64,000 nt of DNA from Patescibacteria group bacterium (GTDB taxonomy: Bacteria > Patescibacteriota > Patescibacteriia > Patescibacteriales > BM507). The notes under the pieces are model-generated. The model was not told where the DNA came from and made no database searches. It saw only the letters and a list, made by a program, of their open reading frames with translations. The DNA is taken from NCBI GenBank assembly GCA_027858235.1, contig JAQIDC010000072.1, positions 9,499-73,498 on the forward strand, written 5' to 3'. Below, in pieces: positions 3,053-63,470 of this stretch (within the stretch, counting starts at the first letter, position 1; every line of letters begins with the position of its first letter). Made by a program: the position numbers and the translations under genes.

Positions 3053-3057
3053 AAATT

Positions 3058-39125: not shown

Positions 39126-39150
39126 TTTTTTTAAATTTTAAATCTTTAAA

Positions 39151-40037: not shown

Positions 40038-40142
40038 AGGCTATAATCCTAAATTTATTATCAATATTCAAGATAATATGTTTTCGTTACGAACATCTAT
40101 AATACTTTAAATATTTTCTTAATATCTATATATTAGCATATT

Positions 40143-49159: not shown

Positions 49160-51328
49160 TTACTCCACAAAAACATCTCTCGGTTTATTTTGAATACTTG
49201 GCCCGACCACTCCTTGTTTTTCTAAATTATCGAGTATCCTATTTGCTCTTGGATATCCTATTCCTAGTCTTGATTGAAGCATTGTTGCTGACGCTTTGCC
49301 GGAATCTAGAATCATCTTTCTTGCCTCCTCCATCATGACATCTCCTTCTTCATCTTCTCCTCCAAAATCAAAATCAGACTGCCCTTTCCCTTCGAATTCA
49401 ACTTCATAGTCAGCGACACCTGATTTCTTCTTTATATATCTAACCACTTCTTTTATTTCTGCTTTATCTATGTAAGTTCCTTGTATTCTCACCGGTTTGC
49501 TCATGGCAGAATTGATATACAACATATCACCATGACCGAGTAATTTTTCTGCTCCTGTATGCTCTAAAATAGTTTTTGAGTTAACTGACGATGTCACTGA
49601 AAAGGCCGCTCTAGCAGGTAAATTTGCCTTAATTAACCCTGATAATATATCAACTGATGGTCTTTGAGTGGCTAGGACCAAGTGAATTCCCGCTGCTCTA
49701 GACTTTTGACCAAGCCGGATTATCGCCCCTTCTGCCTCTTTTTTAGAAGTAGATAAAAGGTCACCAAGCTCATCAACCACAACCACCAAACACGGCATAC
49801 TGTCATTTGGTTTTCTTTTATTATAGTCAAGCATATTCTGACAACCCGCTTTGTTTATTATCGTTAGTCTCTTATCCATCTCTTCAACACACCATTGCAA
49901 AGCTCTTATCGCTCTTTTGTGTTCCGTGATAACTGGAGCTATGAGGTATGGAATTTTGTCATACATACTTAGCTCAACTTGTTTTTGATCTATCATGACA
50001 AACTTTAGGTCGTCAGGATTGTTTTGAAACATTAAACTAATTATAAGTGAATGCAAGAAAACGGACTTCCCAGATGCGGTCTGTCCAGCAATTAAAACAT
50101 GAGGCATCTTCACAAGATCATCAAGCCAAACCTTTCCAGTCACATCTCTACCCATAGGAATTATTGTATTTGATTTACGACTAGTAAATACTTTTGATTT
50201 TAAAACTTCCTTCAAACTGACTAATACTTTTGTTTGATTTGGTATTTCAAGACCAACAAAAGGCTTTCCTGGAATTGGAGCTTCGATACGAACTGGGTGG
50301 ACGGCTAGATTCATAGCCAAGTCATCTGCATAAAATTTTACCCTGCTAACAGATATTCCATTAGCTGGCTTGAAAGTGTATTGAGTAATAGTTGGCCCAA
50401 CGGTAACATCCCCCATATTTATAGGAATGCCAAAATCAGCCAAAGTTTGTTTTATAATTTCTTGATATCTAACAATATTTCCACTGGTTGGTTTTTTTGT
50501 TTTGCTTCTCAATAAGTCTAGCGGTATATTTATTTTTAAATTAGTTTTCTTCCAATTAAAATTCTTCTTATCCTTCTCATTCAAATCATGTGATGACGAT
50601 TCATCTGACAACTCAAAATTATTTTCAAGGGAATGCCCCTTGTCGTCTTCTTCAATATCATATTCTTTTATAACCGCTCCCTTGTCATCCTCAAACTCAA
50701 GATCATATCCATCATCCTCAATCCTCTCCACCTTTGTCATTCCGGGTTTAGCCCGGAACACAGAAACAAGGGGATAAAATATTATCCCAAAAAGAAAAAT
50801 TAGCATTCTAAACAAAATACTCCCCTCTCCAATAATATTTGAAAGACTAGTGTTGAGAATCAATATCAAAGATATCAATACCAAAGAAGAAAGAAGCACT
50901 GCACTCACAGGAGAACCGAGATAATCAATAAGTAGTGGCGAAATAGCTGAGCCTAAAATCCCTCCTCCTATTTCAGTATTCCAAAAATACAATAATCCAG
51001 AGATACTAATCAAAAACAGTCCAATCCCAAAAACATTAGCACCATCAAAATCATCGTCATCATTGCGAGCCAAAGCTATAACAGTTAAAAACAATAAAAC
51101 CGGAACACTCCATTTAGCATAACCAAAAAACACACCAAGATAGATACTAGCAAGACTACCTAATTCACCAGCCTTACCCAGATAACCAAACAAACACAAA
51201 AGACCAAGCAACAAAAAAAAGATCAAGAAAATCCCTTTCCTAGCACCACGAGAAAGACTCCAACTTGGAATAAACACCCCAAGAAGTCTTTTAAAAATAC
51301 TTTTTCTTTTTTTCTTTTTTTTAAACAT
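49160..51328 (-). CDS. ftsK: DNA translocase FtsK/SpoIIIE
   Basis: N-terminal TM helices. Motor domain 'LIAGQTASGKSVFL' (Walker A) and 'LVVVVDELGDL' (Walker B). C-terminal gamma wHTH 'ASATMLQSRLGIGYPRANRILDNLEKQGVV'. Confidence 0.93.
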   Translation of the reverse strand: MFKKKKKRKSIFKRLLGVFIPSWSLSRGARKGIFLIFFLLLGLLCLFGYLGKAGELGSLASIYLGVFFGYAKWSVPVLLFLTVIALARNDDDDFDGANVFGIGLFLISISGLLYFWNTEIGGGILGSAISPLLIDYLGSPVSAVLLSSLVLISLILILNTSLSNIIGEGSILFRMLIFLFGIIFYPLVSVFRAKPGMTKVERIEDDGYDLEFEDDKGAVIKEYDIEEDDKGHSLENNFELSDESSSHDLNEKDKKNFNWKKTNLKINIPLDLLRSKTKKPTSGNIVRYQEIIKQTLADFGIPINMGDVTVGPTITQYTFKPANGISVSRVKFYADDLAMNLAVHPVRIEAPIPGKPFVGLEIPNQTKVLVSLKEVLKSKVFTSRKSNTIIPMGRDVTGKVWLDDLVKMPHVLIAGQTASGKSVFLHSLIISLMFQNNPDDLKFVMIDQKQVELSMYDKIPYLIAPVITEHKRAIRALQWCVEEMDKRLTIINKAGCQNMLDYNKRKPNDSMPCLVVVVDELGDLLSTSKKEAEGAIIRLGQKSRAAGIHLVLATQRPSVDILSGLIKANLPARAAFSVTSSVNSKTILEHTGAEKLLGHGDMLYINSAMSKPVRIQGTYIDKAEIKEVVRYIKKKSGVADYEVEFEGKGQSDFDFGGEDEEGDVMMEEARKMILDSGKASATMLQSRLGIGYPRANRILDNLEKQGVVGPSIQNKPRDVFVE

Positions 51329-51470
51329 ATTAGCAATCCCCTCCTTTTATATTCTCCTCTCGAGACAAGGTGAATCGCTACCAAGCGAGAGAGAGTGCCC
51401 TGGGGTAGGAGTACCCGCCAGGGGGAGGTGTGTTAAAAATAGTGTGTAATAGTCCTGCCTTTAAATCAAT

Positions 51471-51527
51471 AAAAAAAGCGACCAAAAGTCTTATCTAAAT
51501 AAAATTTAGACAAAACTTCCAACCGCT
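51471..51527 (-). terminator. intrinsic terminator (23-bp helix + U7)
   Basis: Minus strand: GCGGUUGGAAGUUUUGUCUAAAU-UUU-AUUUAGAUAAGACUUUUGGUCGC followed by UUUUUUU. All 23 positions pair (Watson-Crick or G-U). Confidence 0.75.
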
Positions 51528-51680
51528 TTAACACTAACGTGTAAGTGATGGACAATTATTTCATTCTCGTGTCATTCTGAAGTTAATTCAGAATCCAGAA
51601 AATAATATTCAGTAAAAGGTGCGACTTGCCCCGCTTTGCGGGAAGAAATAAGTGTGCGGCATAACCGCAGGGGAACTTAT
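51471..51680 (-). ncRNA. candidate ~210-nt non-coding RNA or attenuating leader (unclassified)
   Basis: Bounded by a near-consensus promoter and a very strong terminator. Contains only tiny ORFs without RBS. Several local hairpins: AUAAGU..ACUUAU enclosing UGCGG/CCGCA; CCCGC-AAA-GCGGG; AUUCUGAA-UUAAC-UUCAGAAU. The 5' end is estimated from the -10 box. Confidence 0.5.
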
Positions 51681-51686
51681 AATACC

Positions 51687-51714
51687 ATTATAACACAAAT
51701 ATAGCGTTTGTCAA
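51687..51714 (-). promoter_or_regulatory. sigma70-type promoter with extended -10
   Basis: Minus strand: TTGACA-16 nt-TGtTATAAT. The -35 box sits inside the palindrome TGTCAAcaTTGACA. Confidence 0.6.
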
Positions 51715-51739
51715 TGTTGACAGGATTTTTTTCTTTAAA

Positions 51740-51839
51740 AAAAGATGAAATCTAGATTTATCCCGTTAAATTATTTCCATTTAACTGGTATTCATACCGT
51801 GAAACCCTTTTTGTTTAACTGGTACCTGATCCCAATTAC
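51740..51839 (-). repeat. cassette repeat copy 1
   Basis: Plus strand: ...AGATTTATCCCGTTAAATTATTTCCATTTAACTGGTATTCATACCGTGAAACCCTTTTTGTTTAACTGGTACCTGATCCCAATTAC. Ends 2 nt before the stop codon at 51842. Shares extra flanks (AAAAAGATGAAATCT / AATTAC) with copy 2. Confidence 0.9.
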
Positions 51840-51841
51840 TT

Positions 51842-52678
51842 TTATTTCTTAGTTAACACCAAAACATCTTGATCCATTTCTTCCCCTTCCTGGACTTCTT
51901 TATTTAGAAGCCCCTTCCAATCTCCTAAATATATCTCAAACCCGTGAGCTTCGGCTAATTCTTTTATTTTATCAGCTGAATGATAATATTTAACAGTTTC
52001 GGCTCCCTCAAGATATCCCGAGTTTGGCTCACCAGAAATTTTGAAAAGTTTAACAGTAAAATTATCGCCATCTTTTAAGATCTTTATCTTATTATCGGAA
52101 AACAGCTCACCGTTATATAGATATCTGGCATTGGTTGAATAGCTTTTTAGTTCTGGGCTTAAATTCCCCATCGTAGCTACCAATTTTCCTTTTTGTTTTA
52201 ATTTTTTTGATAATAATTCAAACAAGGCATCAAGATTGTCTAAATGATCAATAGTGTATTTCATGATGCTGATATCAAGCTTCTCATCATCCAGTACACG
52301 CAAATATTCTAAAATATCACTTTTTATAAAGCTTGTCACTTCTTTGCGCTTTTCATATTCTTCTGTTTCCAAATACTTCTTAGCCAATTCAAGCATATAG
52401 GAAGATACATCCACCCAGTCAATGTGACCTCTGGGTTCGTTCAGTAGCTTGGCAAAAAATTCATGATATCTGTCCGGATGAGCACCTCCGCCCAGCTCAG
52501 CTGAATATACAGGTCTATCTAACTCTTTCGTTTCTTGCATTATTATCCCATCAACAATTTGAGCTACTCTAAAATTTTTGTCGTTCTGTTCAAGCTCAGC
52601 AAATTTTTCTGCTATCTCGGGAGAGAAATACATACCTAGCCCTTCTTTTTTATTTTGATTTATTTTTTCTTGATTCAT
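51842..52678 (-). CDS. class I SAM-dependent methyltransferase (cassette A)
   Basis: 'VYSAELGGGAHPDRY' (motif I, ExGxGxG-like) and 'IDWVDVSSYMLELAK' (motif II). Confidence 0.65.
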   Translation of the reverse strand: MNQEKINQNKKEGLGMYFSPEIAEKFAELEQNDKNFRVAQIVDGIIMQETKELDRPVYSAELGGGAHPDRYHEFFAKLLNEPRGHIDWVDVSSYMLELAKKYLETEEYEKRKEVTSFIKSDILEYLRVLDDEKLDISIMKYTIDHLDNLDALFELLSKKLKQKGKLVATMGNLSPELKSYSTNARYLYNGELFSDNKIKILKDGDNFTVKLFKISGEPNSGYLEGAETVKYYHSADKIKELAEAHGFEIYLGDWKGLLNKEVQEGEEMDQDVLVLTKK

Positions 52679-52705
52679 ATCTTTATTTTTAATATTTTTT
52701 TTATG

Positions 52706-52806
52706 AAAAAGATGAAATCTAGATTTATCCCGTTAAATTATTTCCATTTAACTGGTATTCATACCGTGAAACCCTTTTTGTTTAACTGGTACCTGACCCC
52801 AATTAC
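52706..52806 (-). repeat. cassette repeat copy 2
   Basis: Near-identical to copy 1, including the extended flanks. Lies 6 nt after the stop at 52813 and 27 nt before the start at 52678. Confidence 0.9.
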
Positions 52807-52812
52807 CTTCAA

Positions 52813-53679
52813 TTAACTCTTCATATCATTTTCCAGTTGATTCTCCCAGTTTGGAATAATTTTTTTCATTTTCTTTTGCCAATCTGGTGGAATGCTAGCA
52901 TGACGGATAAACAGAAGCTGCGGATCTGGAATTGAATACATAACATCATAAAAAGCCGTTGTCCCTGATCCCGCTACTCCATTGCTTGATTTCCATTTTC
53001 CGAGTTCTGACAAATCCTTATTTGTATAATTGCAAATAGCTAGATTTGTCATTCCTTCATTAAATCTTTTCAGGACATAAAGAGATATGGCTGCCAACTT
53101 TTTTGCTGAATTTTTGTAAACATTGAATGGAACGAGTCGAAAATACCAATTAAGAATATAATGAGCAATTGAGTCAACATTCTGATCTCTTGCATCTTTT
53201 TCCATCTCATCAGTAATTCCTTGTTTTTTAAGTATTTTTTCAATCTCAATAATTCTTTTATTTGACTCTTCTTCAATATTCACTAAATACTTATCAATTT
53301 CTATATGAGCACTATAAAGAAGCTCGACAAAGGCCTTATAGTCAGTTGGTTGTTTCATTCTACACTCATGTTTTGACAAATCAACACCATACAAGAAACG
53401 AGAAACGGGCTCACCGTTTGGCATTATGTTTACATAGTAACTTGAAAAAACCTGGAAATCCCTCACGTAAGGGTTTAAATCATCATAAACCTTTAAAGCA
53501 CCTTTAGCAAATATTTTTTTAACACTATCAAGAAAAGCTTTTTCTGATATTTGAATATCAGTAAACATTAACAACCTCTCAATATCATTAATATCTTTTT
53601 CATCCAAAGCAAAACTACTCGCTGTCTTGCAAAACCTATTCCTTGCGGAACTATATAATTTTTTTAATATTATTTCCAT
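52813..53679 (-). CDS. hypothetical protein (cassette B)
   Basis: 288-aa ORF filling the interval between copies 3 and 2. No motif recognised. Confidence 0.5.
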   Translation of the reverse strand: MEIILKKLYSSARNRFCKTASSFALDEKDINDIERLLMFTDIQISEKAFLDSVKKIFAKGALKVYDDLNPYVRDFQVFSSYYVNIMPNGEPVSRFLYGVDLSKHECRMKQPTDYKAFVELLYSAHIEIDKYLVNIEEESNKRIIEIEKILKKQGITDEMEKDARDQNVDSIAHYILNWYFRLVPFNVYKNSAKKLAAISLYVLKRFNEGMTNLAICNYTNKDLSELGKWKSSNGVAGSGTTAFYDVMYSIPDPQLLFIRHASIPPDWQKKMKKIIPNWENQLENDMKS

Positions 53680-53726
53680 AAGACATATATCTTAATTTAA
53701 TTTATATATTATTTAAACAAAAAACA

Positions 53727-53840
53727 AGATTTATCCCGTTAAATTATTTCCATTTAACTGGTATTCATACCGTGAAACCCTCTTTGTTTAACTGGTATTC
53801 ATACCGTGAAACCCTCTTTGTTTAACTGGTACCTGACCCC
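53727..53840 (-). repeat. cassette repeat copy 3 (with internal 34-nt tandem duplication)
   Basis: Same unit, but AACTGGTATTCATACCGTGAAACCCTCTTTGTTT occurs twice. This gives three TTTAACTGG half-sites at 53753, 53787 and 53821, 34 nt apart. Confidence 0.9.
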
Positions 53841-53925
53841 CACTAGCTTTTCAGCTAATATTCAGATATTTTAAATATTCTAATTGACTTATAATAAAAA
53901 TATGTAATATTATAAGTATCAAGAT

Positions 53926-53969
53926 AAAAGGGTCGCTGAAGCTGTGAGGCAGATGGCCCCCTTTTTTTT
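53926..53969. terminator. GC-rich hairpin flanked by A-run and T8 (bidirectional terminator shape)
   Basis: AAAA-GGGTCGCTGAAGCTGTGAGGCAGATGGCCCCC-TTTTTTTT. The T8 is on the plus strand and a T4 on the minus strand. Confidence 0.45.
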
Positions 53970-54010
53970 ATTCTCTTTTAATCTTATTTTTTAAATTCAA
54001 AATTCAAGAT

Positions 54011-54364
54011 TTATTTAATTTCTTTTTTAAACATTTCTCTTACTAAGTTATCAAAGTCTTTATTTTTCTTCCATATAATTTTCATTTTATCATATGTTTT
54101 ATCAAAACCCATATATGGTTTAAATTCTTCTGTTCCTTTGTATTTAGCTATTTCTCTCCAATATTTTTCATTCTCCAAAAGCAAATTAAACGCCTCAGTG
54201 AATTCCCAAAATAGCCGGTCATTATCATGGCATTCTTTTGGTTCTAACTTATATTTCTTCTCAAGATAGTCATAAGTAATAAAATGTAACATTTCATGAG
54301 CAATAACAATATTAGAAGAACCCGGTTTATTTATTGGAAATGAAAACTCTTTTTCTTCTATCAT
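54011..54364 (-). CDS. HExxH zinc-metallopeptidase-like protein, probably 5'-truncated
   Basis: 'IVIAHEMLHFITYD' HExxH motif. The reading frame stays open for 42 codons upstream of the ATG without any start codon. Confidence 0.45.
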   Translation of the reverse strand: MIEEKEFSFPINKPGSSNIVIAHEMLHFITYDYLEKKYKLEPKECHDNDRLFWEFTEAFNLLLENEKYWREIAKYKGTEEFKPYMGFDKTYDKMKIIWKKNKDFDNLVREMFKKEIK

Positions 54365-54531
54365 TCTTGGATAAACTTCTAGAATAGAAGCACTCCCCGT
54401 ATATTCACCTTCTGGCCAATCATAACCTTTGAATATTCTATCTACTTCTTTTAGGAAACTACCCTCTACTTCCTTCCATCTCTCGTTGGCTTCATTTAAC
54501 TTTAGCTCAAAGCTATCGTTGTTTTTTTTAT

Positions 54532-54708
54532 ACTAATCAAATATAAAATTTTTCGCCTCCTTTTCAATTTTCTCTTTTTCTTTATACTTTTCTAGATATT
54601 TCAAATCAGAAAGAATAGCCCTGTTGTCCTCCTCTAAAAAAGAAAGAAAAAATCCTAAATCATCTTCCTTGTTTAAAACTAAATTTAATTTTGGTTTTTT
54701 ATTAGTCA
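54532..54708 (-). CDS. small ORF (58 aa), possibly the detached N-terminus of the HExxH gene
   Basis: Not in the track. MTNKKPKLNLVLNKEDDLGFFLSFLEEDNRAILSDLKYLEKYKEKEKIEKEAKNFIFD*. Ends at a TAG, in a different frame from 54011..54364. Confidence 0.3.
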
Positions 54709-54748
54709 TATTAAAGATTACTTTTTATAAAAGTCTTTCAATGCAAGA

Positions 54749-54846
54749 AACAAGATTTGACCACGTTAATCTGTTAAAAAAGGATAAAAGCTAGACCTCG
54801 TATATTAACTTTTAAAAGCCTGAAAAATGGATCAAAACCCTTTTAC
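54749..54846 (-). repeat. decayed copy of the cassette repeat
   Basis: AAACAAGATTTGACCACGTTAAT...TCAAAACCCTTTTACTA retains the two ends of the unit (AAACAAGATTTATCCCGTTAAAT...GAAACCCTCTTTG). It sits exactly at the 3' end of ORF 54846..55472. Confidence 0.4.
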
Positions 54847-55472
54847 TACAATTCTTCATTAGTTTTAAACCACCAATCAAACTCATCGGAATATTTTTTG
54901 ACATTCCTATTGAACCAATCTGACATTTTAAAAGCATCAAGTGCCCCTGGGAAACTATTTTTAGCTTGAAATGGTCTACTCCACTTATCTTCATCTAATC
55001 CGAGTCGAATAGCTAGAATATAATGCCTAATGCCTTGATTATCCAAAGGGTTTGCTCTCAAAAGTTTTCTAAATATAAACAAAGCCTGTTCAGTCTTCCC
55101 TTTTCGCCAGCATAAAAATCCATAGGCTTCAATGACTCTCATAAGATGACGATTTTCCAAATAACCCCAACGCAATTCTTTTGGCCAATTTCCATCTTTA
55201 TCAACTATTTTCATTAATGCTTTTGTATAAGCAGCCTGTAACAGCTCATCCGCCTCCTCTACCCTATTACTATGAGACAATATATCAGCCAAGCTGATAT
55301 AAGAATCAAAAAAATATTCATCCACCTCAATAAGTCTTCTCAACTCAATCTCCACTTCATTATCAGACATTTCGCTCTCGTAAATATCGTAAAAATCATC
55401 CATTACTTCATGGTGATTATCATCAACAAATTCTTTTAGTTGTTTTTTTCGCAATGAATTTTTGATTTCCAT
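54846..55472 (-). CDS. hypothetical helical-repeat (TPR-like) protein
   Basis: 208 aa. Segments such as 'EQALFIFRKLLRANPLDNQGIRHYILAI' look TPR-like. No catalytic motif. Confidence 0.5.
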   Translation of the reverse strand: MEIKNSLRKKQLKEFVDDNHHEVMDDFYDIYESEMSDNEVEIELRRLIEVDEYFFDSYISLADILSHSNRVEEADELLQAAYTKALMKIVDKDGNWPKELRWGYLENRHLMRVIEAYGFLCWRKGKTEQALFIFRKLLRANPLDNQGIRHYILAIRLGLDEDKWSRPFQAKNSFPGALDAFKMSDWFNRNVKKYSDEFDWWFKTNEEL

Positions 55473-55799
55473 AGTTTTCTAAATTATTTTTTATACAAAA
55501 TTTATTTAAATACAAAACTTTAATTTAAAGTTCGAGACTTGCTCCGATTATAGTCAATAATTTCACCAAAAATAATCTCAGCACAGCCAGAACCTAATTT
55601 GAATATAAGGTGAAGAAGGTGCATTGCGGATGCAAATGAGGCCGGCCTGGGTCGTACGGAAGCAGAGAGGGTGCTCTGGGGTGCTTTTCGGACATTTCTG
55701 TCCTCAATTTTTCTCCTTGTTATATATTTTTTAATCTATATTATAATCATGGTTATAATATAGATTACTTTTTATTGAAATTTACTTATTCAAAAAACA

Positions 55800-55879
55800 A
55801 GATTTATCCCGTTAAATTATTTCCATTTAACTGGTATTCATACCGTGAAACCCTCTTTGTTTAACTGGTACCTGACCCC
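55800..55879 (-). repeat. cassette repeat copy 4
   Basis: AGATTTATCCCGTTAAATTATTTCCATTTAACTGGTATTCATACCGTGAAACCCTCTTTGTTTAACTGGTACCTGACCCC. Confidence 0.9.
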
Positions 55880-55880
55880 A

Positions 55881-56041
55881 GGAGTCACTTGCGTCTTGAG
55901 TTGTTTAATAAAAGCACGTTCCAGTTCTGCTTCGCTTTAACAAGAAACACTATCCTGAACTCGGTCTGCATGTCTTCGGTATTCAGCGACAACTGTGCTG
56001 TGAGAATTTTCCGCAACTAGATTGTATTTATTGTATGACAT
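55881..56041 (-). pseudogene. hsdR: 5' remnant of a type I restriction enzyme R-subunit gene (hsdR), cut off at repeat copy 4
   Basis: Minus-strand translation: MSYNKYNLVAENSHSTVVAEYRRHADRVQDSVSC*SEAELERAFIKQLKTQ.. This matches the HsdR N-terminus pattern (...ESNNFIVLDKY........YQSE.DLER..I..L..QGY). It has an in-frame TAA where YQ is expected, and the homology ends at the repeat. Confidence 0.6.
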
Positions 56042-56078
56042 ATTTCATAAATTTTATAATTACATTACATCACATTTT

Positions 56079-56957
56079 CTAATCTTCTTCTTCATAATAA
56101 TAAGAGTAGTCTATTCCTTTCATAAACATTTCACGATTGTTAATTTTACTAGTAAGAGCATTTTTAAATAAATTTTTTATTTTTATACTATTTTTGGAGC
56201 TATGTGTCATTGCATTTATATAATCTTTTTTGCCTATTTTACTCCACTCCACACATTTTTTAAGGCTTTTTTTCAATATTAAATCAAGCCAAATACGAGT
56301 ACTTCTTCCATTGCCTTCCATGAAGGGATGAGCGACATTCATTTCTACATATTTATCGGCAATTTGTTCAAAATTATTTTCAGGCATTTGTTCAATTTGT
56401 TTAAGCGTGTTTTCTAAATATTGTGCCATCGCAAATTGAAAACCATTTTTTGAAATATTTTTCTGTCGTATTTTTCCTGCAAAATTATACAAACCGCCAA
56501 ATAAATAAGCATGAATTTGTTGCAAGCCCTTGGTTGTGCCGATTTCAATGCTATTAATAAGAGAACTTTCAAACAAGGCATAAGCTTTTGTTTTACTTTT
56601 TCCATCGATACTCTCATCACCATGAATAAACCAGTCAATAAATCGGTTAGCTTTAGTCCCGGGGAATGTTTTACCTAGGGCAATAATCCCGTCATAGTCT
56701 AACGTATCAGTTAAATATCGTTTCCCATCACTTGCCAAAAGTTTCAGTTGGGTAGTAGCACTAACCACCTGACTGTTCTCTTTCTTGAGCTTGGCTTTGA
56801 GATATTTCCAATAATTGCGGGCTTTGGCGTAGTCGTCTTGATCAGTGAGAACGGCGATGATGTCTAACACACTAAACCACCATTTATTATTTTTTTCATC
56901 CCAAACGGCACGAACTTCTCGATCGTCAAAGAAACGAATTGAAATTTTATGATTCAT
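56079..56957 (-). CDS. Bro-N-like DNA-binding domain fused to a Fic (AMPylase-type) domain
   Basis: N-terminal '[31 protein letters not shown]' (Bro-N/antirepressor-like). C-terminal '[14 protein letters not shown]' = Fic motif HPFx(D/E)GNGRxxR. Confidence 0.8.
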
Positions 56958-56993
56958 ATTTTTTAAAAGTTAATAATTTTACCTCGATAATAT

Positions 56994-57254
56994 TCATATT
57001 GCTTCTTTCTCATAGCAAGCCCTGCATTTAACTGACTTTTCAATAGAACTTCGGTGTCCTATTGGTAACACCCAAAAAAAACCATCAATCGAACCCCATG
57101 CTTCCGCTGGCATTTCGTAATCTATTTCTGCACTTAGAGGCTCAAAATCGATACAAAAAGTTTGGATCCGTTCTCCTTCACTTGTATAATGCGCTGGCAT
57201 TTTTCTTCTAGCCGTATAAACAAGGTGAAGTGTTTTCCTTAAAATTTCATTCAT
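56994..57254 (-). CDS. hypothetical 86-aa protein downstream of the AbrB-like gene (toxin candidate by position only)
   Basis: ORF starts 35 nt after the AbrB-like stop. No motif recognised. Confidence 0.4.
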   Translation of the reverse strand: MNEILRKTLHLVYTARRKMPAHYTSEGERIQTFCIDFEPLSAEIDYEMPAEAWGSIDGFFWVLPIGHRSSIEKSVKCRACYEKEAI

Positions 57255-57289
57255 AATATTTTTATAAATAATCCTTTGGTGTCATATTT

Positions 57290-57448
57290 TTATTTCCAAT
57301 CCTCAATAATTATCTTCTTCCCACTCCGACGTATTGTTAATTTTTGTCTTTCCCTTATTTTCAACTCGGAAACAATATCAGCAGGGATAACAACAGACAA
57401 ACTCCTCTGCCCAACACGAGTAACTTTTCTAATATATTTTTTTATCAT
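57290..57448 (-). CDS. AbrB/MazE/SpoVT-type DNA-binding protein (antitoxin-like)
   Basis: Not in the track (52 aa): MIKKYIRKVTRVGQRSLSVVIPADIVSELKIRERQKLTIRRSGKKIIIEDWK. 'VGQRSLSVVIPADIV..L.I' is the swapped-hairpin barrel signature. The plus-strand ORF 57276..57485 is its antisense artefact. Confidence 0.7.
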   Translation of the reverse strand: MIKKYIRKVTRVGQRSLSVVIPADIVSELKIRERQKLTIRRSGKKIIIEDWK

Positions 57449-57457
57449 ATTTTTCTT

Positions 57458-57481
57458 GTTACGTAACATGCTACGTAACAG
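57458..57481 (-). promoter_or_regulatory. operator-like paired palindromes just upstream of the AbrB-like gene
   Basis: GTTACGTAAC (57458..57467, perfect palindrome) and CTACGTAACAG (57471..57481), 10-33 nt upstream of the start codon. Confidence 0.4.
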
Positions 57482-57601
57482 ATAATTTCAAATTATTTTT
57501 TCACTATATAATACTTGGTAATCTATCTATACTATACTCTTAATTCACAATTCCGGATCCAAATCACCCTATCAACTACCTCTTTAAAAACTTATTCCAT
57601 G

Positions 57602-57949
57602 TCACCGTTTCTTTAAATAACCATCAATTCTCCCTCTATCTTCATTCTCTTTATCCCCTTTAAAATACACTTCAATAAATTCAATACTTATTAACTCAAA
57701 ACGACTACAATCCTTATTACAAGAGTATATAATTCGTAGGGAGCTCTTTTTTAAGCTTTTAGAAAACAGTCTTGCCTTAATTATTAGCAAGTCATCAGTT
57801 TTGGTTAAAATATTGGAATGTCTTCCATTGCCGAAAGGAAATTTTTTTAAAATATCTTTAAACAATTCAATATCATCTTTCAGAGTTTTAAATTTCTTTG
57901 AAAGTTTTTTAAAGTCTTTTTCAAATTCTTTTGTGCAACTATAATTCAT
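57602..57949 (-). CDS. small toxin candidate (RelE/ParE-superfamily-like) paired with the Panacea antitoxin
   Basis: 115 aa, overlapping the upstream antitoxin gene by 11 nt. The 'FEKDFKKLSKKFKTLKDDIELFKDIL' N-terminus and beta-rich C-half are reminiscent of RelE/YafQ-type toxins. The assignment is weak. Confidence 0.4.
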   Translation of the reverse strand: MNYSCTKEFEKDFKKLSKKFKTLKDDIELFKDILKKFPFGNGRHSNILTKTDDLLIIKARLFSKSLKKSSLRIIYSCNKDCSRFELISIEFIEVYFKGDKENEDRGRIDGYLKKR

Positions 57950-58712
57950 CCTCGTAATTTCTTACGGAATGATCATTGTCGCGATAAAAGACAGATTCAT
58001 ATCGAATCTTCTCACCATCTTCATGTATCATCCATGGTGTATCAGTATGTGAATAAGCACTTAACTCTTTGGCAGATTTGCCTGCAAGACGAGATAAAAC
58101 ATCATCGATATGTGATGTCTCCTGAGCTGACAAATTCTTTAAGTTGGCGGACTTTAAGGGTAGATATTTTTTTTGCTCGTACTGAAAATGTTTTGACTTT
58201 ATCATTTCTAGTTCACCATCTTTCTGCATTTTATCAACTATTTTTTTAAACTCCACTGGCGTTGGACCGTAATGATTTTTTATATAAGTTGCGCCCATTA
58301 AGTTTTCTTCAAACTTCTCGTAATAATCAAAATCAATAAAATATAGAAGTTTGTAAACAACTGTCTCTCCAACGTTTGGTTTTGCTCCAACTTTCTCTAA
58401 TATATAAAGTAGAACTTGTTTAAACTTTTTCAAATCCTTCTCCTCAACACGAATCTCAATATCTTTGTTAGATTTCTTCTTTTTACTCTCTATTATTTTA
58501 ACTTTTACAGATTCTTCCCTGTTGGCTAAAAGATCCTGTAAGCTCATCCCAAAAAGTCTAGACAATTTCTCCGCTTCAGATATCCTGAGTTCAGTCTCAC
58601 CATTCTCAATCTTTTCATAGGTTGGTCGAGAGACTCCAATTTTCTCTGCAACAAAAGACTGGCTAAAGCCATTCTTTTTTCTTAACTTTTGGACAAGTAG
58701 ATGCTTAATCAT
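57939..58712 (-). CDS. XRE-family HTH + Panacea (DUF4065/SocA-like) domain antitoxin
   Basis: 'LRKKNGFSQSFVAEKIGVSRPTYEKIENGE' HTH_XRE. 'VVYKLLYFIDFDYYEKFEENLMGATYIKNHYGPTPVEF' DUF4065 core. Confidence 0.8.
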   Translation of the reverse strand: MIKHLLVQKLRKKNGFSQSFVAEKIGVSRPTYEKIENGETELRISEAEKLSRLFGMSLQDLLANREESVKVKIIESKKKKSNKDIEIRVEEKDLKKFKQVLLYILEKVGAKPNVGETVVYKLLYFIDFDYYEKFEENLMGATYIKNHYGPTPVEFKKIVDKMQKDGELEMIKSKHFQYEQKKYLPLKSANLKNLSAQETSHIDDVLSRLAGKSAKELSAYSHTDTPWMIHEDGEKIRYESVFYRDNDHSVRNYEDEL

Positions 58713-58740
58713 AAATTTAAACTATTTTTCCTATGACAAT

Positions 58741-58769
58741 ATTATACATAATGTAAAATATTTTGTCAA
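58741..58769 (-). promoter_or_regulatory. consensus sigma70 promoter of the Panacea TA operon
   Basis: Minus strand: TTGACA-17 nt-TATAAT (rc of 58764..58769 and 58741..58746), ~30 nt upstream of the start at 58712. Confidence 0.6.
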
Positions 58770-58929
58770 TATCAATGTAATATTTATTTACATATTAACC
58801 TATCAACATTAGAAAATTATTAAACCCTATTTTTCTTGATTGCTCAACCTCATCAGAGATTTTCTACCTCCTCATAAATATTTAAACTACAGCTAGTTTA
58901 TCTATATTATAATCACAATTCACAATTTA

Positions 58930-59009
58930 AGATTTATACCGTTAAATTATTTCCATTTAACTGGTATTCATACCGTGAAACCCTCTTTGTTTAACTGGTA
59001 CCTGTCCCC
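58930..59009 (-). repeat. cassette repeat copy 5
   Basis: AGATTTATACCGTTAAAT...GTTTAACTGGTACCTGTCCCC. Followed by a C10-T8 homopolymer junction running into the methyltransferase stop codon at 59022. Confidence 0.9.
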
Positions 59010-59021
59010 CCCCCCTTTTTT

Positions 59022-60269
59022 TTATATAAAATCTCTTAATGCTTCTCCTATTTTTTTCACAACCCCAACAACAAGAGCATTCCCCATAATATAGGCTCTC
59101 TTCGTGTCTGGGACACCTTCTGTGTGGTTATCTGGAAACATATTTAATCTCTCTAATTCTATCGGAAGTAATCTTCGTAAACGTCCATTTTTTATTTTAA
59201 TTACATGCTTAAATCTTGAAGGGGATGACCCTCCTTCTCCTGTAACAATTGTTCGAGATGCGTTATTCAAATTATCAGGAAAAATCATTCCACCTTCAGA
59301 ATAGTTATACTCAAAACCATCTTTTGTTTTTCTATTTTCAGTTTTCCCATTTTTTAAATATTTCCAACGCTCAAGGGTGTTTTTCTTAATAAAAAACTCT
59401 TCTGGCACCTCTTTATCATTCACAAGAACGTCTTTTAACATAATCTTTTTACCATCATACTTTGAAGTTACTTTTTTTGTATAAATTTTACTATTAATCA
59501 TTATCCCTGCGTTATGGAAAGGACTAATTTTTGGAGAATCGCTAGAAAAATCCCTTGAAACAATAGCAGGGTCTGCATCTAGAGTAAAAAAATCAACTTC
59601 AACATCATCCTTATTAACAGGGAAACCAGATGCTATTATGCCTTTTGAATTTATCCATTCTTTAGGATTTGTATTTTTAGCTTCTTTATATGCAGTGGTT
59701 CCTTTTTTGTAGGCTAAAATAAAAACTCGTCTTCTTCGTTGAGGAAAACCATATTCTGCTGCATTAATTATTCTCCATTCTACAATGTACCCCAAAGAAG
59801 CTAAAGATGAAAGCATTACTGCAAAGTCTCGTCCTCTTTGTTTAGTTGGAGATTTAAGAAGTCTATCAACATTCTCTAACAATAAAAAATTAGGTGAGTT
59901 TTTACCACTTTTTTTCAAAATATTAAAAATAGACCACCACAAAACACCCTTTTTACCAACTAAACCGTTTGCCTGATTTGCTGTACGTGCAACAGAATAA
60001 TCCTGGCAAGGAAAACCACCGACCAATAAATCGTGTTGTGGTATTGTCTTAAATTTGCTTTTTACAACAAGCTGAATATCTTCACAAGAGTGACCCTCTG
60101 TACCAAAACGTTCTTTATATATATCTGAAGCATGCTGAGTCTTTGTGCTTGGCTCCCATTGGCTATTCCAAACAGTTTGATATTTAATTTTCTTATTACT
60201 TGCTTGGTCAAGGCCTATTCTAAAGCCTCCAACTCCCGCAAATAATTCAACTACTTTTATTGTTTTCAT
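59022..60269 (-). CDS. DNA (cytosine-5) methyltransferase, M.Sau3AI-like
   Basis: Motif I 'ELFAGVGGF', motif IV 'GGFPCQDYS', motif VI 'LLENVDRLL', motif VIII 'QRRRRVFIL', motif X 'GNALVVGV'. Confidence 0.9.
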   Translation of the reverse strand: MKTIKVVELFAGVGGFRIGLDQASNKKIKYQTVWNSQWEPSTKTQHASDIYKERFGTEGHSCEDIQLVVKSKFKTIPQHDLLVGGFPCQDYSVARTANQANGLVGKKGVLWWSIFNILKKSGKNSPNFLLLENVDRLLKSPTKQRGRDFAVMLSSLASLGYIVEWRIINAAEYGFPQRRRRVFILAYKKGTTAYKEAKNTNPKEWINSKGIIASGFPVNKDDVEVDFFTLDADPAIVSRDFSSDSPKISPFHNAGIMINSKIYTKKVTSKYDGKKIMLKDVLVNDKEVPEEFFIKKNTLERWKYLKNGKTENRKTKDGFEYNYSEGGMIFPDNLNNASRTIVTGEGGSSPSRFKHVIKIKNGRLRRLLPIELERLNMFPDNHTEGVPDTKRAYIMGNALVVGVVKKIGEALRDFI

Positions 60270-60326
60270 ATTTTAAAAATTACTATCTATATAATAGCAA
60301 AATTATCAATTTTGATCAAATTTTAA

Positions 60327-61736
60327 CTAACTTATATTTTCTAACACTTTTTGAATATATTTTGCATTCAACCAAAAAGATTTTTTCATCTCTTGCGTTC
60401 CTTGGGGTGTTTCAGCGGTATCCCTAGAATCTTTTCCATGTGGGCGCACATGTGCCACGTCATTATCACTAATCTTTGGTAAGTCCTCATATCGGTCTTC
60501 ATTTATACAATCAATTGTTTTATTCCAGACATCCTCTGCTTCAGACATGTCTTCTATGGGAAAATTCCAAAACAAAAATTTCTTGAATACAATTTCTTCA
60601 CTGCCCTTTTGTTTTTGAAATACAGCAAATAAAAATCGCTTTGTTTCTAGTTGCGCGTGAAATTCACTCATTTCCTCCTCTTCTTCGTCATACCAAACTT
60701 GCGTTACTAAATCCTTATAGTCAAAAGCAGGGAACGACAATGATTCTGTAAGTACTCCAGTGTGTTCCAAGGTAATTGCCTTAAGTGTAATATTCGCTTT
60801 TTCTAACTCTTCAATCCTATTTGATTTAACTCCAAGCATTCTGTTTACCAATAATCGTTTCCATTGTTTTGGTTCTTTCTTAAGATCCCATTTTACAGCT
60901 TTCTTTATTTCGGTATCAGTTTTTCCAATGAATTGTGCAAATTTTTCTTTCACAACGTCTTCAACAGTAGCCAGCCGTCGCTTTTTTTTAAAGATTGACT
61001 CAGTGCTAATATCTTTTCCAAGCAACTCTTTTTGGATTAAGAAATTAAGATATTGTTGTTTAAAAGAAAAAGCTCTTGGCTTAGCAGGTGTCCTCGCCAT
61101 AGGCTGGTCGCGCACAACTCTACTATTTGCAGCTTTCGTGCAAGCTCCCAAGTAATATGTATCTCCTTCAGACAATAAATGTGCCTCTCCTCGTTTTATT
61201 TTTCCAACAATATATTCCCAGTCTTTTTGTATTTGGTAAATATCTTCCTCGGAAATATCATCGAGTAAATCAAGTAAATGCACAAACTTAAATTTATAGT
61301 CTAGGATGTCTTGCTCTTTAAGCCACAGATAGAACATTAACAAAAGAACTTTGTTCTTCTTGAGAAATGAGCTTGTCTCCCACGATTCATTAATCACCTC
61401 ATCATAGTTAATCATTGAAAAAACAAGTCTTTCCTTTGAAACATATTTTTTCACCGCATGCGCTTTGAGTGGGTTTGTCTTTAATTCTATTCCCGCAATT
61501 TTGAAATCTGCCTCTGCTCTATTATTAACATCCAAACCAAATACAAACTCTTCCACCAACTCACCGAGAAGACCCTTTCTTCGGCTTCCATATTTCAAAA
61601 GTCTTTGCTCAATTTCTTCTAGGTCAACTCCATCGTCAGACATTACTGAACGCAAAGATCGCCCAAGAATTTTTTGAGCTTCGGTAAGTACTGATTCTTT
61701 TGTGGTGTATGTTTTAGTCATTATTACTCTTTCCAT
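60327..61736 (-). CDS. Sau3AI/MutH-family type II restriction endonuclease
   Basis: MutH-type catalytic block 'EADFKIAGIELKTNPLK' (D...E.K), 'SKERLVFSMINYDEV', 'EAHLLSEGDTYYLGACTKAAN', and a C-terminal 'HVRPHGKDSRDT'. Length ~470 aa, as for two-domain Sau3AI. Confidence 0.8.
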   Translation of the reverse strand: MERVIMTKTYTTKESVLTEAQKILGRSLRSVMSDDGVDLEEIEQRLLKYGSRRKGLLGELVEEFVFGLDVNNRAEADFKIAGIELKTNPLKAHAVKKYVSKERLVFSMINYDEVINESWETSSFLKKNKVLLLMFYLWLKEQDILDYKFKFVHLLDLLDDISEEDIYQIQKDWEYIVGKIKRGEAHLLSEGDTYYLGACTKAANSRVVRDQPMARTPAKPRAFSFKQQYLNFLIQKELLGKDISTESIFKKKRRLATVEDVVKEKFAQFIGKTDTEIKKAVKWDLKKEPKQWKRLLVNRMLGVKSNRIEELEKANITLKAITLEHTGVLTESLSFPAFDYKDLVTQVWYDEEEEEMSEFHAQLETKRFLFAVFQKQKGSEEIVFKKFLFWNFPIEDMSEAEDVWNKTIDCINEDRYEDLPKISDNDVAHVRPHGKDSRDTAETPQGTQEMKKSFWLNAKYIQKVLENIS

Positions 61737-63460: not shown

Positions 63461-63470
63461 AATGTTGGGG

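Follow-up and report, generated by a model that had tools for sequence, protein, structure and literature searches.

What kind of element is the 80-nt repeat that lies between gene cassettes next to ftsK in this Patescibacteria contig? Recombination sites such as dif, loxP and FRT have two inverted arms around a fixed crossover of 6-8 bp, and FRT has an accessory third arm. A preliminary description of the copy at 55800-55879 had placed the repeat among such sites and held that it was not just a terminator. The window, which is the whole stretch of 64,000 nt that was analysed, contains five near-identical 80-nt units on one strand between 51.75 and 59.0 kb, among gene cassettes that adjoin ftsK.

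Repeat Units in the Window

The letters at 55800-55879, read directly from the sequence, are those quoted before. CCCGTTAAAT (55808-55817) and ATTTAACTGG (55825-55834) are complementary at nine of ten positions, with the 7-nt TATTTCC between them. TTTAACTGGTA is found at 55826 and again, in direct orientation, 34 nt on at 55860, and GGTATTCATACC lies in between. The sequence confirms the layout that had been reported. The same site can be recast as a perfect 7-bp stem, GTTAAAT/ATTTAAC, with a bulged T (55832) and a CC/GG foot.

A 26-nt core occurs exactly at five positions (51763, 52730, 53736, 55809, and 58939), all on the plus strand, and shuffled sequence gives an expectation of 0. There are 11 exact sites for TTTAACTGGTA, and 14 when up to one mismatch is allowed, against 2.2 expected. 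The unit recurs far above chance. Identity among the five co-oriented copies is 93-100%. The units are as follows.

51754..51833, minus strand, copy 1 (HP1 and HP2): core match at 51763, alignment, CM (43.4 and 24.5 bits)
52721..52800, minus strand, copy 2: alignment, core match, CM
53727..53840, minus strand, copy 3: TTTAACTGGTA three times in direct orientation (53753, 53787, 53821), CM matches at 53726-65 and 53794-833
54753..54770 (approximate), minus strand, decayed sixth unit (relic): alignment, repeat family D4 (54705-54758 against 55752-55805)
55800..55879, minus strand, copy 4 (the unit under study): sequence, alignment, core match, DNA fold, CM
58930..59015, minus strand, copy 5: alignment, core match, CM

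Copy 1 has a methyltransferase cassette on one side and ftsK on the other. Copy 2 separates this cassette from one for a 288-aa protein and starts 3-8 nt past a stop codon. These two copies share about 20 extra flanking nucleotides, with 93% identity over 123 nt. In copy 3 the 34-nt HP1 hairpin unit is doubled. The relic retains the right arm and tail only (AGATTTGACCACGTTAAT on the plus strand), together with a 54-nt flank that resembles the flank of copy 4. Copy 4 stands between a Fic/Bro-N cassette and a TPR cassette. Copy 5 follows immediately on the stop codon of a C5-methylase, and its 5' GGGGTCAGG is swapped for a G10 tract (C10 on the plus strand, 59006-59015). All five copies and the relic lie within 7.3 kb, and the CM found no further copy in the other ~71 kb examined of the 96-kb contig (the rest of the window and 14 kb beyond it). 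The copies are clustered rather than dispersed, a pattern that resembles a cassette array more than a genome-wide REP.

The cassettes were identified from ORFs, Pfam, and gene calls on the source contig.

51842..58712, minus strand, unit-bounded cassettes
51842-52678, minus strand, methyltransferase cassette
52813-53679, minus strand, 288-aa putative toxin
inside 51842..58712, minus strand, 117-aa and 58-aa ORFs
54846-55472, minus strand, TPR cassette
56079-56957, minus strand, Bro-N/Fic with small ORFs
57602-58712, minus strand, 115-aa ORF and HTH-Panacea antitoxin

Each of the five copies and the relic is downstream of minus-strand genes, with the unit sequence on the plus strand, and all are co-oriented. 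The units start 3-10 nt past stop codons. Two single-ORF cassettes are tightly bounded by units, with leaders of 42-47 nt and a unit 3-8 nt after the stop; the spacings are 967 and 1006 bp. Such an arrangement resembles that of integrons. Some of the cassettes are multi-gene and carry perfect sigma-70 promoters of their own. The cassettes of the window are horizontally acquired defence and toxin genes, kept apart by the five copies. In other samples, cassettes assemble as isolated contigs of ~950 bp that end at the unit. Among five related samples no cassette presence/absence polymorphism was found; gene order is constant, and the unit is where contigs break. The 288-aa protein has homologues in other CPR-like islands, where the hairpin is absent.

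Two Hairpins in Each Unit

The 80-nt unit is predicted to fold into two imperfect hairpins in tandem.

55807..55836, minus strand, HP2 of copy 4, family-type hairpin: DNA fold, 43 bits to the family model
55841..55870, minus strand, HP1 of copy 4, diverged tandem hairpin: DNA fold of both strands, CM score of 25.2 bits from a training set of 79 sequences that includes HP1

The gene-sense strand of HP2 reads TACC-A-GTTAAAT-GGAAATA-ATTTAAC-GGGA and continues into the tail TAAATCT. The tail GGGATAAATCT is identical in the metagenome members L079 and L145. The gene-sense strand of HP1 reads TACC-A-GTTAAAC-AAAGAGG-GTTTCAC-GGTA (TACC-GTGAAAC-CCTCTTT-GTTTAAC-T-GGTA on the plus strand), and six of its seven stem positions pair. 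It is formed by the downstream TTTAACTGG, which pairs with GTGAAAC (55845-51) in the MFE structure predicted for either DNA strand. Folding each strand as single-stranded DNA, a check that had been proposed, predicted two hairpins on either one, at -10.4 and -11.3 kcal/mol (z about -2.3). By DNA fold and CM the two hairpins stand in tandem, on the same strand and in direct orientation.

This anatomy changes how the other parts of the site are read. What had been called a small palindrome is the feet of both hairpins with a 4-nt linker. The direct copy of the arm, which had been likened to the third arm of FRT, is the left arm, that is one half, of the second tandem hairpin, which copy 3 carries twice as a unit of 34 nt. 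The second hairpin, the doubled unit in copy 3, and the decayed sixth copy at about 54753-54770 had been overlooked.

The hairpins are 26-30 nt long, with a stem of 11 bp in all and one extrahelical base. The foot is CCCC/GGGG (TACC/GGTA in the window), and there is one conserved bulged base. The basic module measures ~33 nt and consists of a GC foot with one purine bulged out, an A/T-rich stem of 7 bp, a loop of 7-9 nt, and a short 3' tail (YARRY). In the Patescibacteria contig it is present as the 80-nt tandem pair HP1 and HP2. Whichever strand is read, GTTAAAT forms the 5' arm and ATTTAAC the 3' arm, and the AAAT/ATTT ends face the loop. The letters of the integron boxes, GTTRRRY/RYYYAAC, are present and arranged otherwise, as had been noted: their order is the reverse of that in attC, and they are at the hairpin apex rather than its base.

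A Hairpin Family in Several Phyla

HP2 follows the pattern CC(CC)-A-GTTAAAT-loop-ATTTAAC-GG(GG)-YARRY. Hairpins of this family were found in 13 MAGs, which represent about six phyla, and, among the matches listed, in more than 120 contigs from metagenomes. An extension by C...G, which was not forced by the search, was seen in 13 of 25 GTDB matches and in 116 of 132 overall among the matches listed. A generic hairpin scan gave 187 units against six in a reversed-sequence control, and the bulged base was A in 170 of the 187. At least 19 identical bases are kept in Patescibacteria, Desulfobacterota, Bacteroidota, Cloacimonadota, and Bdellovibrionota. The family is very large, spread over several phyla, and apparently undescribed. 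Literature searches by sequence and by integron keywords returned nothing relevant, viral contigs gave one chance match only, and a plasmid collection gave no match.

Genes beside family members include those for PIN, PDDEXK_3, TumE, MNT, Fic, RadC, and HEPN proteins, and according to Pfam the window holds the same kinds. All-versus-all BLAST of flanking ORFs revealed no shared neighbour gene; only toxin-antitoxin (TA) and defence cargo recurs. The family moves across phyla alongside TA and defence genes. A second array, at locus L051, is likewise homogeneous and co-oriented; TA operons on both strands separate its units, with several TA modules from one unit to the next. Many other members stand alone, in either orientation, or form tandem or nested sets that lack a cassette. 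A ribozyme-related motif was considered for locus L005, where the hairpin is at the 3' end of a 23S rRNA group I intron, and was set aside; L007 and others have only ~140 nt of intergenic sequence.

Pairing, Loop Length, and Covariation

Loops of 9 nt predominate among the 121 metagenome matches listed, with 75, against 28 for 8 nt and nine for 7 nt, and in some CM matches the loop is 14-35 nt. The supposed 7-nt crossover is 7, 8, and mostly 9 nt across the family, and the loop-closing pairs inside this spacer covary. At the foot, 56 sequences have a CG pair and 16 a UA pair, and the observed covariation was reached by none of 500 shuffles. Independent CM matches carry compensatory arms, namely GTGAAAT/ATTTCAC, GTTGAAT/ATTCAAC, GTGAAGT/ACTTCAC, and ATTAAAT/ATTTAAT. 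One base is always bulged across the family, and the two strands of the element are strongly asymmetric. The pairing of the hairpin is under selection. The arms had been viewed as recombinase half-sites, and this view is contradicted by the double substitutions, the CG/UA switch in the foot, and the conserved bulge. A comparison of conservation between half-sites and spacer had also been proposed; the arms are much better conserved, an outcome that the search pattern forced.

The loop of 7-9 nt, the compensatory changes in arm, foot, and closing pairs, and the constant bulge point to a folded strand rather than to a double-stranded core site with a fixed spacer. A double-stranded site of the Xer/Cre/Flp type, in which inverted 10-bp arms would flank a 7-bp crossover and a direct arm would be accessory, is highly improbable; the variable spacer length and the covariation already contradict it. 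Such a site would account for the inverted arms around 7 nt in all five copies and, subject to the forced search pattern, for arms far better conserved than the spacer. However, the arms are unequal owing to the conserved 1-nt bulge, and the supposed third arm belongs to another hairpin. Nested arrangements of the form L-loop-[L-loop-R]-R are impossible through conservative exchange within the spacer, and a recombinase gene was found neither in the window nor in the following 14 kb.

DNA Level Versus RNA Level

The unit acts as a DNA-level element. Seven terminator-like sites were predicted in 51300-59300, none of them at a unit, and the stems of the unit are A/T-rich. As RNA, the unit folds no better than shuffled sequence (z of -0.45 and -0.29). 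The view that it is not just a terminator is upheld by both results. Rfam gave no match in the window at the gathering score, none for the unit at E <=10, and none at the hairpin in 14 family loci. Mismatches of the G.T type number 29 and those of the A.C type 32, with no excess of wobble pairs. Orientation is neutral with respect to flanking ORFs among the matches listed (34 plus and 45 minus upstream, 35 plus and 46 minus downstream).

It is nevertheless conceivable that the unit serves in the 3' UTRs of cassette mRNAs, as a stabiliser, processing site, atypical terminator, or small RNA. All units of the window are 3' of genes on the coding strand, the hairpins covary, and T runs follow some members of opposite orientation (L007, L009, L010, and L018). 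Against this, the RNA folds and terminator predictions gave no support, and only 11-13 of 103 members have a T run behind them, whichever the orientation, with no association. Orientation relative to genes is unbiased in the family, and the units of L051 share one orientation while its genes occupy both strands. With G.U pairs no more frequent than A.C and no Rfam family at E <=10, an RNA role is very unlikely.

Gain, Loss, and Nesting of Modules

Comparisons between loci can indicate how the module behaves. Locus L015 contains a 34-nt module that is absent from the homologous region of L012. L068, compared with the near-identical L058, has a 33-nt module inserted at AC^GGG and has lost a 16-nt arm and tail. 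Nested sets of the form L1 L2 L3 - R3 R2 R1 were found with matching arm variants. Complementary flanking "outer stems" of at least 7 nt were seen at 25 of the 103 members and at six of 103 in the control. As judged from aligned loci, whole modules of ~33 nt appear to have been gained, lost, and duplicated in tandem, and they are found within the loops and feet of other copies. We infer from these locus-to-locus comparisons that the module is mobile. No conserved target sequence was found at unit boundaries, and the flanks of the five units differ on either strand (AATT, AATT, AGTG, TCCT, and AAAA on the gene-sense strand). Polymorphism of cassette junctions had been expected at the 7-nt loop; none was found, and the unit-level indels fall at hairpin boundaries.

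Search for a Cognate Enzyme

Tyrosine recombinases and Y1 transposases were searched for with query proteins. With these queries, no tyrosine recombinase was found in the window or in the following 14 kb of the source contig, and no IS200-type Y1 transposase in ~0.9 Mb of family loci or beside members. The 60 window ORFs scanned gave no match to Phage_integrase. XerD-like proteins were absent from the window, from L026, and from 130 family loci with the exception of L053, and no TnpB was found near ~130 loci. The tyrosine recombinase of L053 was rejected as cognate enzyme. It is Xer-like rather than IntI and is the RitC of an unrelated recombinase-in-trio (RIT) element, which was followed through 13 further loci, all without the hairpin. 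The RAYT of L149 (223-753) was also rejected, as the RAYT gene is flanked by canonical GTAG REPs of its own. A cognate RAYT flanked by family repeats was found at none of ~130 loci.

Comparison with Known Systems

The hairpin resembles REPs and BIMEs in several ways. These are short imperfect intergenic palindromes with a GC-rich foot, bulges, and a short conserved foot sequence, and they are single or clustered. The hairpin has the foot of at least three G-C pairs and the bulges that define a REP. According to PMC6006769, REPs carry a GT[AG]G tetranucleotide 5' at the hairpin foot and are believed to undergo processing as single-stranded hairpins. In the present family one strand has GCCTG, GTTTA, GCTTG, or ATTTAT beside the foot, the other strand is variable there, and GT[AG]G is absent. 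The same arms recur across about six phyla, not within a single lineage, and no RAYT is associated. Clusters are direct tandems or nested sets and not inverted pairs, and this contig has only five clustered copies.

Guide sequences lie 5' to the foot of each imperfect palindrome in IS608 and in REPs, as PMC3201880 and PMC6006769 describe. Two similar, direct imperfect hairpins on one strand are a likeness to IS200/IS605 elements such as IS608 and to their miniature derivatives. Unlike those elements, the family has no TnpA or TnpB nearby, no conserved flanking target tetranucleotide, and no replication-strand bias, and what moves seems to be one hairpin of ~33 nt. The subterminal hairpin of IS608 has an extrahelical base next to a CCCC/GGGG-type foot, as in the present hairpin.

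In attC sites, R'' (RYYYAAC) at the 5' side and R' (GTTRRRY) at the 3' side pair as the base, with the crossover at G|TT. An attC site spans ~55-140 nt and comprises an R box, a central spacer that stays unpaired, an L box bearing extrahelical bases, and a terminal structure that varies. The array shares with attC and CALIN arrays its homogeneity and common orientation, one copy after each cassette, and the TA and defence cargo, and with attC the folded-strand site, the extrahelical base, and GTT/AAC. It differs in that the boxes are reversed and at the apex, in a length of 26-30 nt against at least ~55 nt, and in that no IntI was found at hairpin loci. Copies are also often solitary, tandem, or nested, and some cassettes are multi-gene and self-promoted. 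All R''/L''/L'/R' assignments were tried on both strands, and only a 27-nt "mini-attC" at the HP1-HP2 junction has the right order. It was rejected, being far too short and not the conserved unit of the family.

The pdif modules bound TA and resistance cassettes. The likeness of the hairpin to dif/pdif, loxP, and FRT is the inverted arms around a short spacer. The differences from dif, loxP, and FRT are a spacer of 7-9 nt or more and arms that covary, are unequal by one bulge, and are 9-11 nt including the foot. The arms, furthermore, have AAAT/ATTT inward, unlike dif, and no recombinase was found at hairpin loci.

The small dispersed repeats (SDRs) of Nostoc and Anabaena are said to be 21-27 nt long and restricted to Nostocaceae. 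They are reportedly nested in one another and within unrelated palindromes and hairpins, often by heptamer tandem repeats, and we know of no enzyme for them. Both families would then be very small mobile repeats, of tens of nucleotides, with similar nesting. The present family differs in sequence, in being itself a hairpin, in its occurrence in several phyla, and in its cassette-spaced arrays. An insertion site of SDR5 is at the HIP1 palindrome, according to PMC5861425.

Possible Nature of the Unit

The explanation preferred here, tentatively and at somewhat less than even confidence, is that the unit is a small mobile DNA hairpin repeat, similar to REPs and SDRs, of which direct copies bound cassettes. 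The hairpin would extrude once the DNA is single-stranded. A structure-specific enzyme, encoded outside the window, would recognise and copy it and would prefer other hairpins as targets. The five co-oriented copies would serve as direct repeats, with cassettes deleted, duplicated, or exchanged by recombination or slippage, and the extra 34-nt HP1 in copy 3 may be one such event between copies. Several results count against this reading: no cognate enzyme in the loci searched, the clustering of the copies in this contig, two tightly bounded single-ORF cassettes, no conserved target at unit boundaries, and no orientation bias of the family relative to GC skew. The earlier proposal of a recombination site survives in part: the unit acts at the DNA level, marks cassette boundaries, and forms a co-oriented array as recombination sites do; the specific core anatomy of a tyrosine recombinase site is not supported.

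The hairpin could also be a folded-DNA attachment site, analogous to that of integrons, at which some recombinase moves cassettes that each carry one 3' unit. Five near-identical co-oriented units, like attC in sedentary integrons, starts 3-10 nt after stops, two single-ORF cassettes, cargo typical of integron arrays, and a second array in L051 are all consistent with this, as are the extrahelical base, the GTT/AAC triplets, the strong strand asymmetry, and the unit-bounded contigs of ~950 bp in other samples. However, the box order is opposite to attC, the hairpin is only 26-30 nt, and one 11-bp stem is too small for two recombinase monomers. Apart from the unrelated RIT element, no integrase or recombinase was found in the window, the next 14 kb, or the 130 loci. 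Many members are solitary, in either orientation, tandem or nested, and have no cassette; some cassettes are multi-gene with their own sigma-70 promoters, L051 has several TA modules per interval, and the five related samples are without cassette polymorphism. An integron analogue is thus possible and rather unlikely. It is likewise unlikely, slightly more so, that the hairpin belongs to an unrecognised cassette system, independent of integron integrases and common to Patescibacteria and several sediment phyla. A candidate enzyme for it would cut and join the folded strand, with its foot, bulged base, and 7-bp stem. If such a system exists, TA and defence cassettes could cross phyla through one universal site. 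It is doubtful that the unit is a non-autonomous element of the IS200/IS605 type (PATE), or a REP, that an HUH Y1 enzyme mobilises and whose left and right ends are the two hairpins. The imperfect hairpins in direct orientation, the GC foot with its extrahelical base and conserved short flank, and a gene-sense hairpin strand that is the lagging-strand template in the window would agree with it. Yet the foot lacks GT[AG]G, the ~130 loci have no nearby Y1 transposase or TnpB, and the sole RAYT seen has different, canonical REPs. Unit boundaries show no conserved target or cleavage tetranucleotide, orientation in the family is unbiased with respect to GC skew (36 against 47), and identity extends across phyla, whereas REP families are lineage-specific.

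CPR genomes are thought to be poor in mobile elements. If the family is as it appears, a structured DNA repeat of ~33 nt accompanies TA and anti-phage genes and is a marker of, and possibly a vehicle for, the exchange of defence cassettes across phyla, reduced CPR genomes included. The hairpin is a concrete, searchable motif with which the enzyme that recognises it could be found. On the practical side, the units break short-read assemblies exactly at cassette boundaries.

The Repeat Unit and Its Copies

The sequence quoted for 55800-55879, the fourth of five copies of an 80-nt unit, was confirmed. The preliminary description was right that this repeat is real and non-random. The 26-nt core CCGTTAAATTATTTCCATTTAACTGG is present in five perfect copies, with zero occurrences expected in shuffled sequence:

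51763, plus strand, core of unit 1
52730, plus strand, core of unit 2
53736, plus strand, core of unit 3
55809, plus strand, core of unit 4
58939, plus strand, core of unit 5

Only four positions vary in the 80-nt alignment of the five units. Copies 1 and 2 have additional sequence in common, about 20 nt on one side and 9 nt on the other, and are 93% identical over 123 nt. Of a sixth, decayed copy (about 54753-54770), only one arm and the tail remain, together with a 54-nt flank.

Since all genes of the region are on the minus strand, the unit is described on that gene-sense strand. It starts with GGGGTCAGG, followed by a first hairpin, HP1, TA-CC-A-GTTAAAC-[AAAGAGG]-GTTTCAC-GG-TA, in which the right arm GTTTCAC has diverged by one base. 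The linker TGAA leads to a second hairpin, HP2, TA-CC-A-GTTAAAT-[GGAAATA]-ATTTAAC-GG-GA, and to the tail TAAATCT. TTTAACTGGTA is found twice per unit at a spacing of 34 nt, and three times in the 53.7-kb copy (copy 3), whose surplus 34 nt are exactly one additional HP1 module. At the unit after the C5-methylase, the usual start is replaced by C10 and then T8 homopolymers (59006-59023; A8, then G10 on the gene strand). These adjoin the methylase stop codon and are possibly slippage-prone.

The inverted 10-mers previously described are present, but they are reread here as HP2, whose 7-bp stem is perfectly paired and is accompanied by a single bulged base and a short foot of G-C pairs. The supposed third direct half-site belongs to HP1, as its left arm, and the small palindrome consists of the two feet (GGTA/TACC) flanking the 4-nt linker. 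Folding each DNA strand to its minimum energy predicts both hairpins, at -10.4 and -11.3 kcal/mol (z = -2.2 and -2.4). RNA folding of the region was not better than that of shuffled sequence.

Genomic Context of the Array

The window corresponds to positions 10763-74762 of a 96-kb metagenome contig (JGI 3300051640 Ga0534205_000027). Its GC content is 32%, and GC skew is strongly negative along the whole plus strand, which makes the minus strand the leading one. The units are interspersed among these genes:

HerA / MutH-like / C5-methylase block, minus strand
HTH-Panacea antitoxin operon with Bro-N/Fic, minus strand
TPR protein, minus strand
two small ORFs, minus strand
288-aa protein (52813-53679), minus strand
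methyltransferase, minus strand
ftsK, minus strand

Two cassettes hold one ORF each, with leaders of 42-47 nt and a stop codon 3-8 nt ahead of the next unit; the others hold several genes. Two perfect (12/12) sigma-70 consensus promoters, TTGACA-17/16-TATAAT, were found on the minus strand. One (58741-58769) lies 170 nt downstream of unit 5, ahead of the HTH-Panacea operon, and the other (51687-51714) lies 40 nt downstream of unit 1, ahead of ftsK. No recombinase or transposase gene was found among 60 window ORFs scanned, and the family covariance model found no further copies in the rest of the window or in 14 kb of contig beyond it. Gene order is identical in four other samples, whose assemblies break at the unit, so that single cassettes end up on contigs of their own, about 950 bp long. 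The preliminary description looked to variable cassettes for junctions within the 7-nt spacer; no cassette polymorphism was found across these four samples.

No Pfam domain was found in the 288-aa protein. In other CPR-like defence islands, its homologues (L165 and L167; 64-67%) always follow a 56-aa MazE-type antitoxin, so it is a candidate new toxin; the MazE partner is absent from the window copy. The region upstream of the array (59022-63926 and L026:1-10000, the contig sequence beyond the window) is a defence island. It comprises a HerA-like ATPase, a MutH/Sau3AI-like endonuclease, and the C5 methylase within the window, and RadC, RhuM, Bro-N, a second Fic, and a peptidase M23 beyond it. 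No hairpin unit was found between its genes. Elsewhere in the window, a 54-nt direct repeat (39093-39146 and 40064-40117; 76% identity) lies 3' of the stop codons of two adjacent hydrolase/phosphatase genes, each time 5' of the next gene. The opposite end of the window (637-3684) carries genes for an MNT-like nucleotidyltransferase and an AbiEii toxin, near a tRNA (4182-4265).

A Widespread Hairpin Family

A GTDB scan of one genome per species, with arms fixed and loop free, gave 25 matches. Thirteen of these agree in features that the pattern left free: CCCC...GGGG feet, an identical bulge, a flank that is conserved, and a loop rich in purines. They are MAGs of Desulfobacterota, Bacteroidota, Cloacimonadota, Armatimonadota, Bdellovibrionales, and Parcubacteria. 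The metagenome scan added at least 120 contigs, predominantly from sediments. Overall, the unforced C...G extension is seen in 116 of 132 matches, among the matches listed. The gene-sense consensus is CC-CC-A-GTTAAAT-loop-ATTTAAC-GGGG-(CAGGC / TAAAC / CAAGC / ATAAAT), and several metagenome members carry exactly the window-unit tail, GGGATAAATCT. With looser hairpin criteria, 187 units were found, against 6 in a reversed-sequence control, with A as the bulge base in 170. The covariance model, of 79 members, scores about 50 bits on the sense strand and about 20 on the antisense, so the element is strongly asymmetric, though palindromic.

The "spacer" is most often 9 nt (75 of the matches listed), less often 8 nt (28) or 7 nt (9), and reaches 35 nt in covariance-model matches. 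Common 9-nt loops have a covarying 2-bp closing helix (GC/GC, TC/GA, AC/GT, GT/AC). The foot pair is C:G in 56 sequences and T:A in 16, and the observed covariation was reached in 0 of 500 shuffles. Compensatory arm variants (GTGAAAT/ATTTCAC, GTTGAAT/ATTCAAC, GTTGAAC/GTTCAAC, GTGAAGT/ACTTCAC, ATTAAAT/ATTTAAT, and GTTTAAT/ATTAAAC) come from members found by the model, not by the search pattern. The variable spacer, foot-pair switch, and compensatory arms jointly show selection on intramolecular pairing, not on a protein half-site and crossover region.

Orientation within the family is neutral relative to both flanking ORFs and local GC skew. G.T mismatches are no more frequent than A.C, and T runs follow only about 12% of members. 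These features argue against an mRNA-embedded or terminator function and for an element that would act at the DNA level. The earlier suggestion that the unit is not just a terminator is borne out; it fails the tests for intrinsic terminators and matches none of the Rfam families.

Module Gain, Loss, and Cargo

The near-identical loci L058 and L068 differ solely by the loss of a 16-nt arm and tail and by an inserted 33-nt module, which interrupts another module precisely at AC^GGG. Likewise, a 34-nt module in L015 is missing from the homologous region of L012. In nested sets (L1 L2 L3 - R3 R2 R1, left and right arms), every left arm matches its own right arm, so modules sit at the 3' end of older modules' loops. 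One quarter of members form the centre of longer palindromes of unrelated sequence, and direct tandem modules are found in L020, L071, and the window unit.

Genes near family members are enriched for PIN, PDDEXK_3, TumE, MNT/HEPN, Fic, RadC, and ORF6N, gene types that the window contains as well. L051 carries five 70-nt units that form a second array, likewise homogeneous and co-oriented; the intervals between them contain toxin-antitoxin operons on both strands, at times several per interval. Family hairpins often lie within or beside tandem arrays of short repeats, of period 7 nt (CTACTGC, CGCAGAT, CACGAAA-type) or 4 nt (GGCA), as at L062:4384-4507, L107:2587-3305, the L051 unit flanks, and L007; these arrays resemble the heptamer repeats around cyanobacterial small repeats. 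In a GTDB MAG (JAUSEG010000008.1; L005:1437-2165), a group I intron of about 730 nt interrupts the 23S rRNA gene at an I-CreI-type site (E. coli ~2593) and encodes a 156-aa LAGLIDADG endonuclease. A family hairpin is its last structured element before the 3' splice site.

Interpretation

The unit is rated as a small palindromic DNA repeat whose conservation across phyla is unusual and whose arrays bound cassettes. The preliminary description took it for the double-stranded core site of a tyrosine recombinase, in which the 7 nt would be the crossover and the extra half-site a third arm like that of FRT. The reread anatomy, a spacer of 7-9 nt or more, and the covarying foot, loop, and arms contradict this, and it is now very improbable; dif, loxP, and FRT have the fixed spacer and conserved half-sites that the unit lacks. 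The main rival, a folded attachment site of an unrecognized cassette system, is kept alive by the tight, co-oriented, homogeneous arrays in the window and L051. It is weakened by the many copies that are solitary, in tandem, or nested, by a box order opposite to that of attC, by the shortness of the stem, and by the absence of a cognate recombinase from the loci searched, and appears rather unlikely. The unit also differs from attC in box order, size, and IntI.

The best-supported reading, still tentative, places the unit with the REP/SDR type, as a small DNA repeat that forms hairpins and is mobile or dispersed; here it is a two-hairpin composite. Structure, covariation, strand asymmetry, module-level indels, and nesting are all shown by the sequence comparisons, as are the cargo association and the local absence of an enzyme. 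The unit has an architecture in common with REP and IS608 hairpins. It lacks the GT[AG]G of canonical REPs and the target tetranucleotide of IS200/IS605 ends, and neither a cognate RAYT nor a TnpA was found in the loci searched. Small dispersed repeats of Nostoc are tiny, nested, and inserted into palindromes, and by that description the unit behaves alike. For such a repeat, the hairpin would extrude in single-stranded DNA and be recognized by a structure-specific enzyme encoded elsewhere, and recombination may occur between copies. Horizontally acquired cassettes lie between the five direct copies, which could mediate the loss, duplication, or exchange of these cassettes.

Search for a Cognate Enzyme

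The unit had no match in a plasmid collection and is not mentioned in the literature that could be searched; in viral contigs the sole match was due to chance. About 0.9 Mb of collected loci, searched with IS200-type Y1 transposase and XerD queries, gave two leads only. The first is a 177-aa RAYT-like Y1 transposase (Pfam Y1_Tnp) at L149:1-1100, a Cloacimonadota-like contig. It was rejected as the cognate enzyme: it lies 9.7 kb from the hairpin, has its own canonical GTAG REP hairpins (GTAGCTCCAGCTA...) on both sides, and is a textbook REPtron. The second, a recombinase fragment (L053:3-599), is Xer-like rather than IntI and belongs to the third gene of a recombinase-in-trio (RIT) element. This was also rejected, as the element is found in many contexts without the hairpin, with one weak match in 83 kb. 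Its genes (L053 and L168-L180) encode proteins of 383, 323, and 338 aa, after Zn-ribbon proteins of 162 and 129 aa. The element is very abundant: RitC has more than 1000 homologues at E < 1e-20, nearly all on short contigs whose flanks differ, a pattern that suggests an active element present in multiple copies in sediment bacteria.
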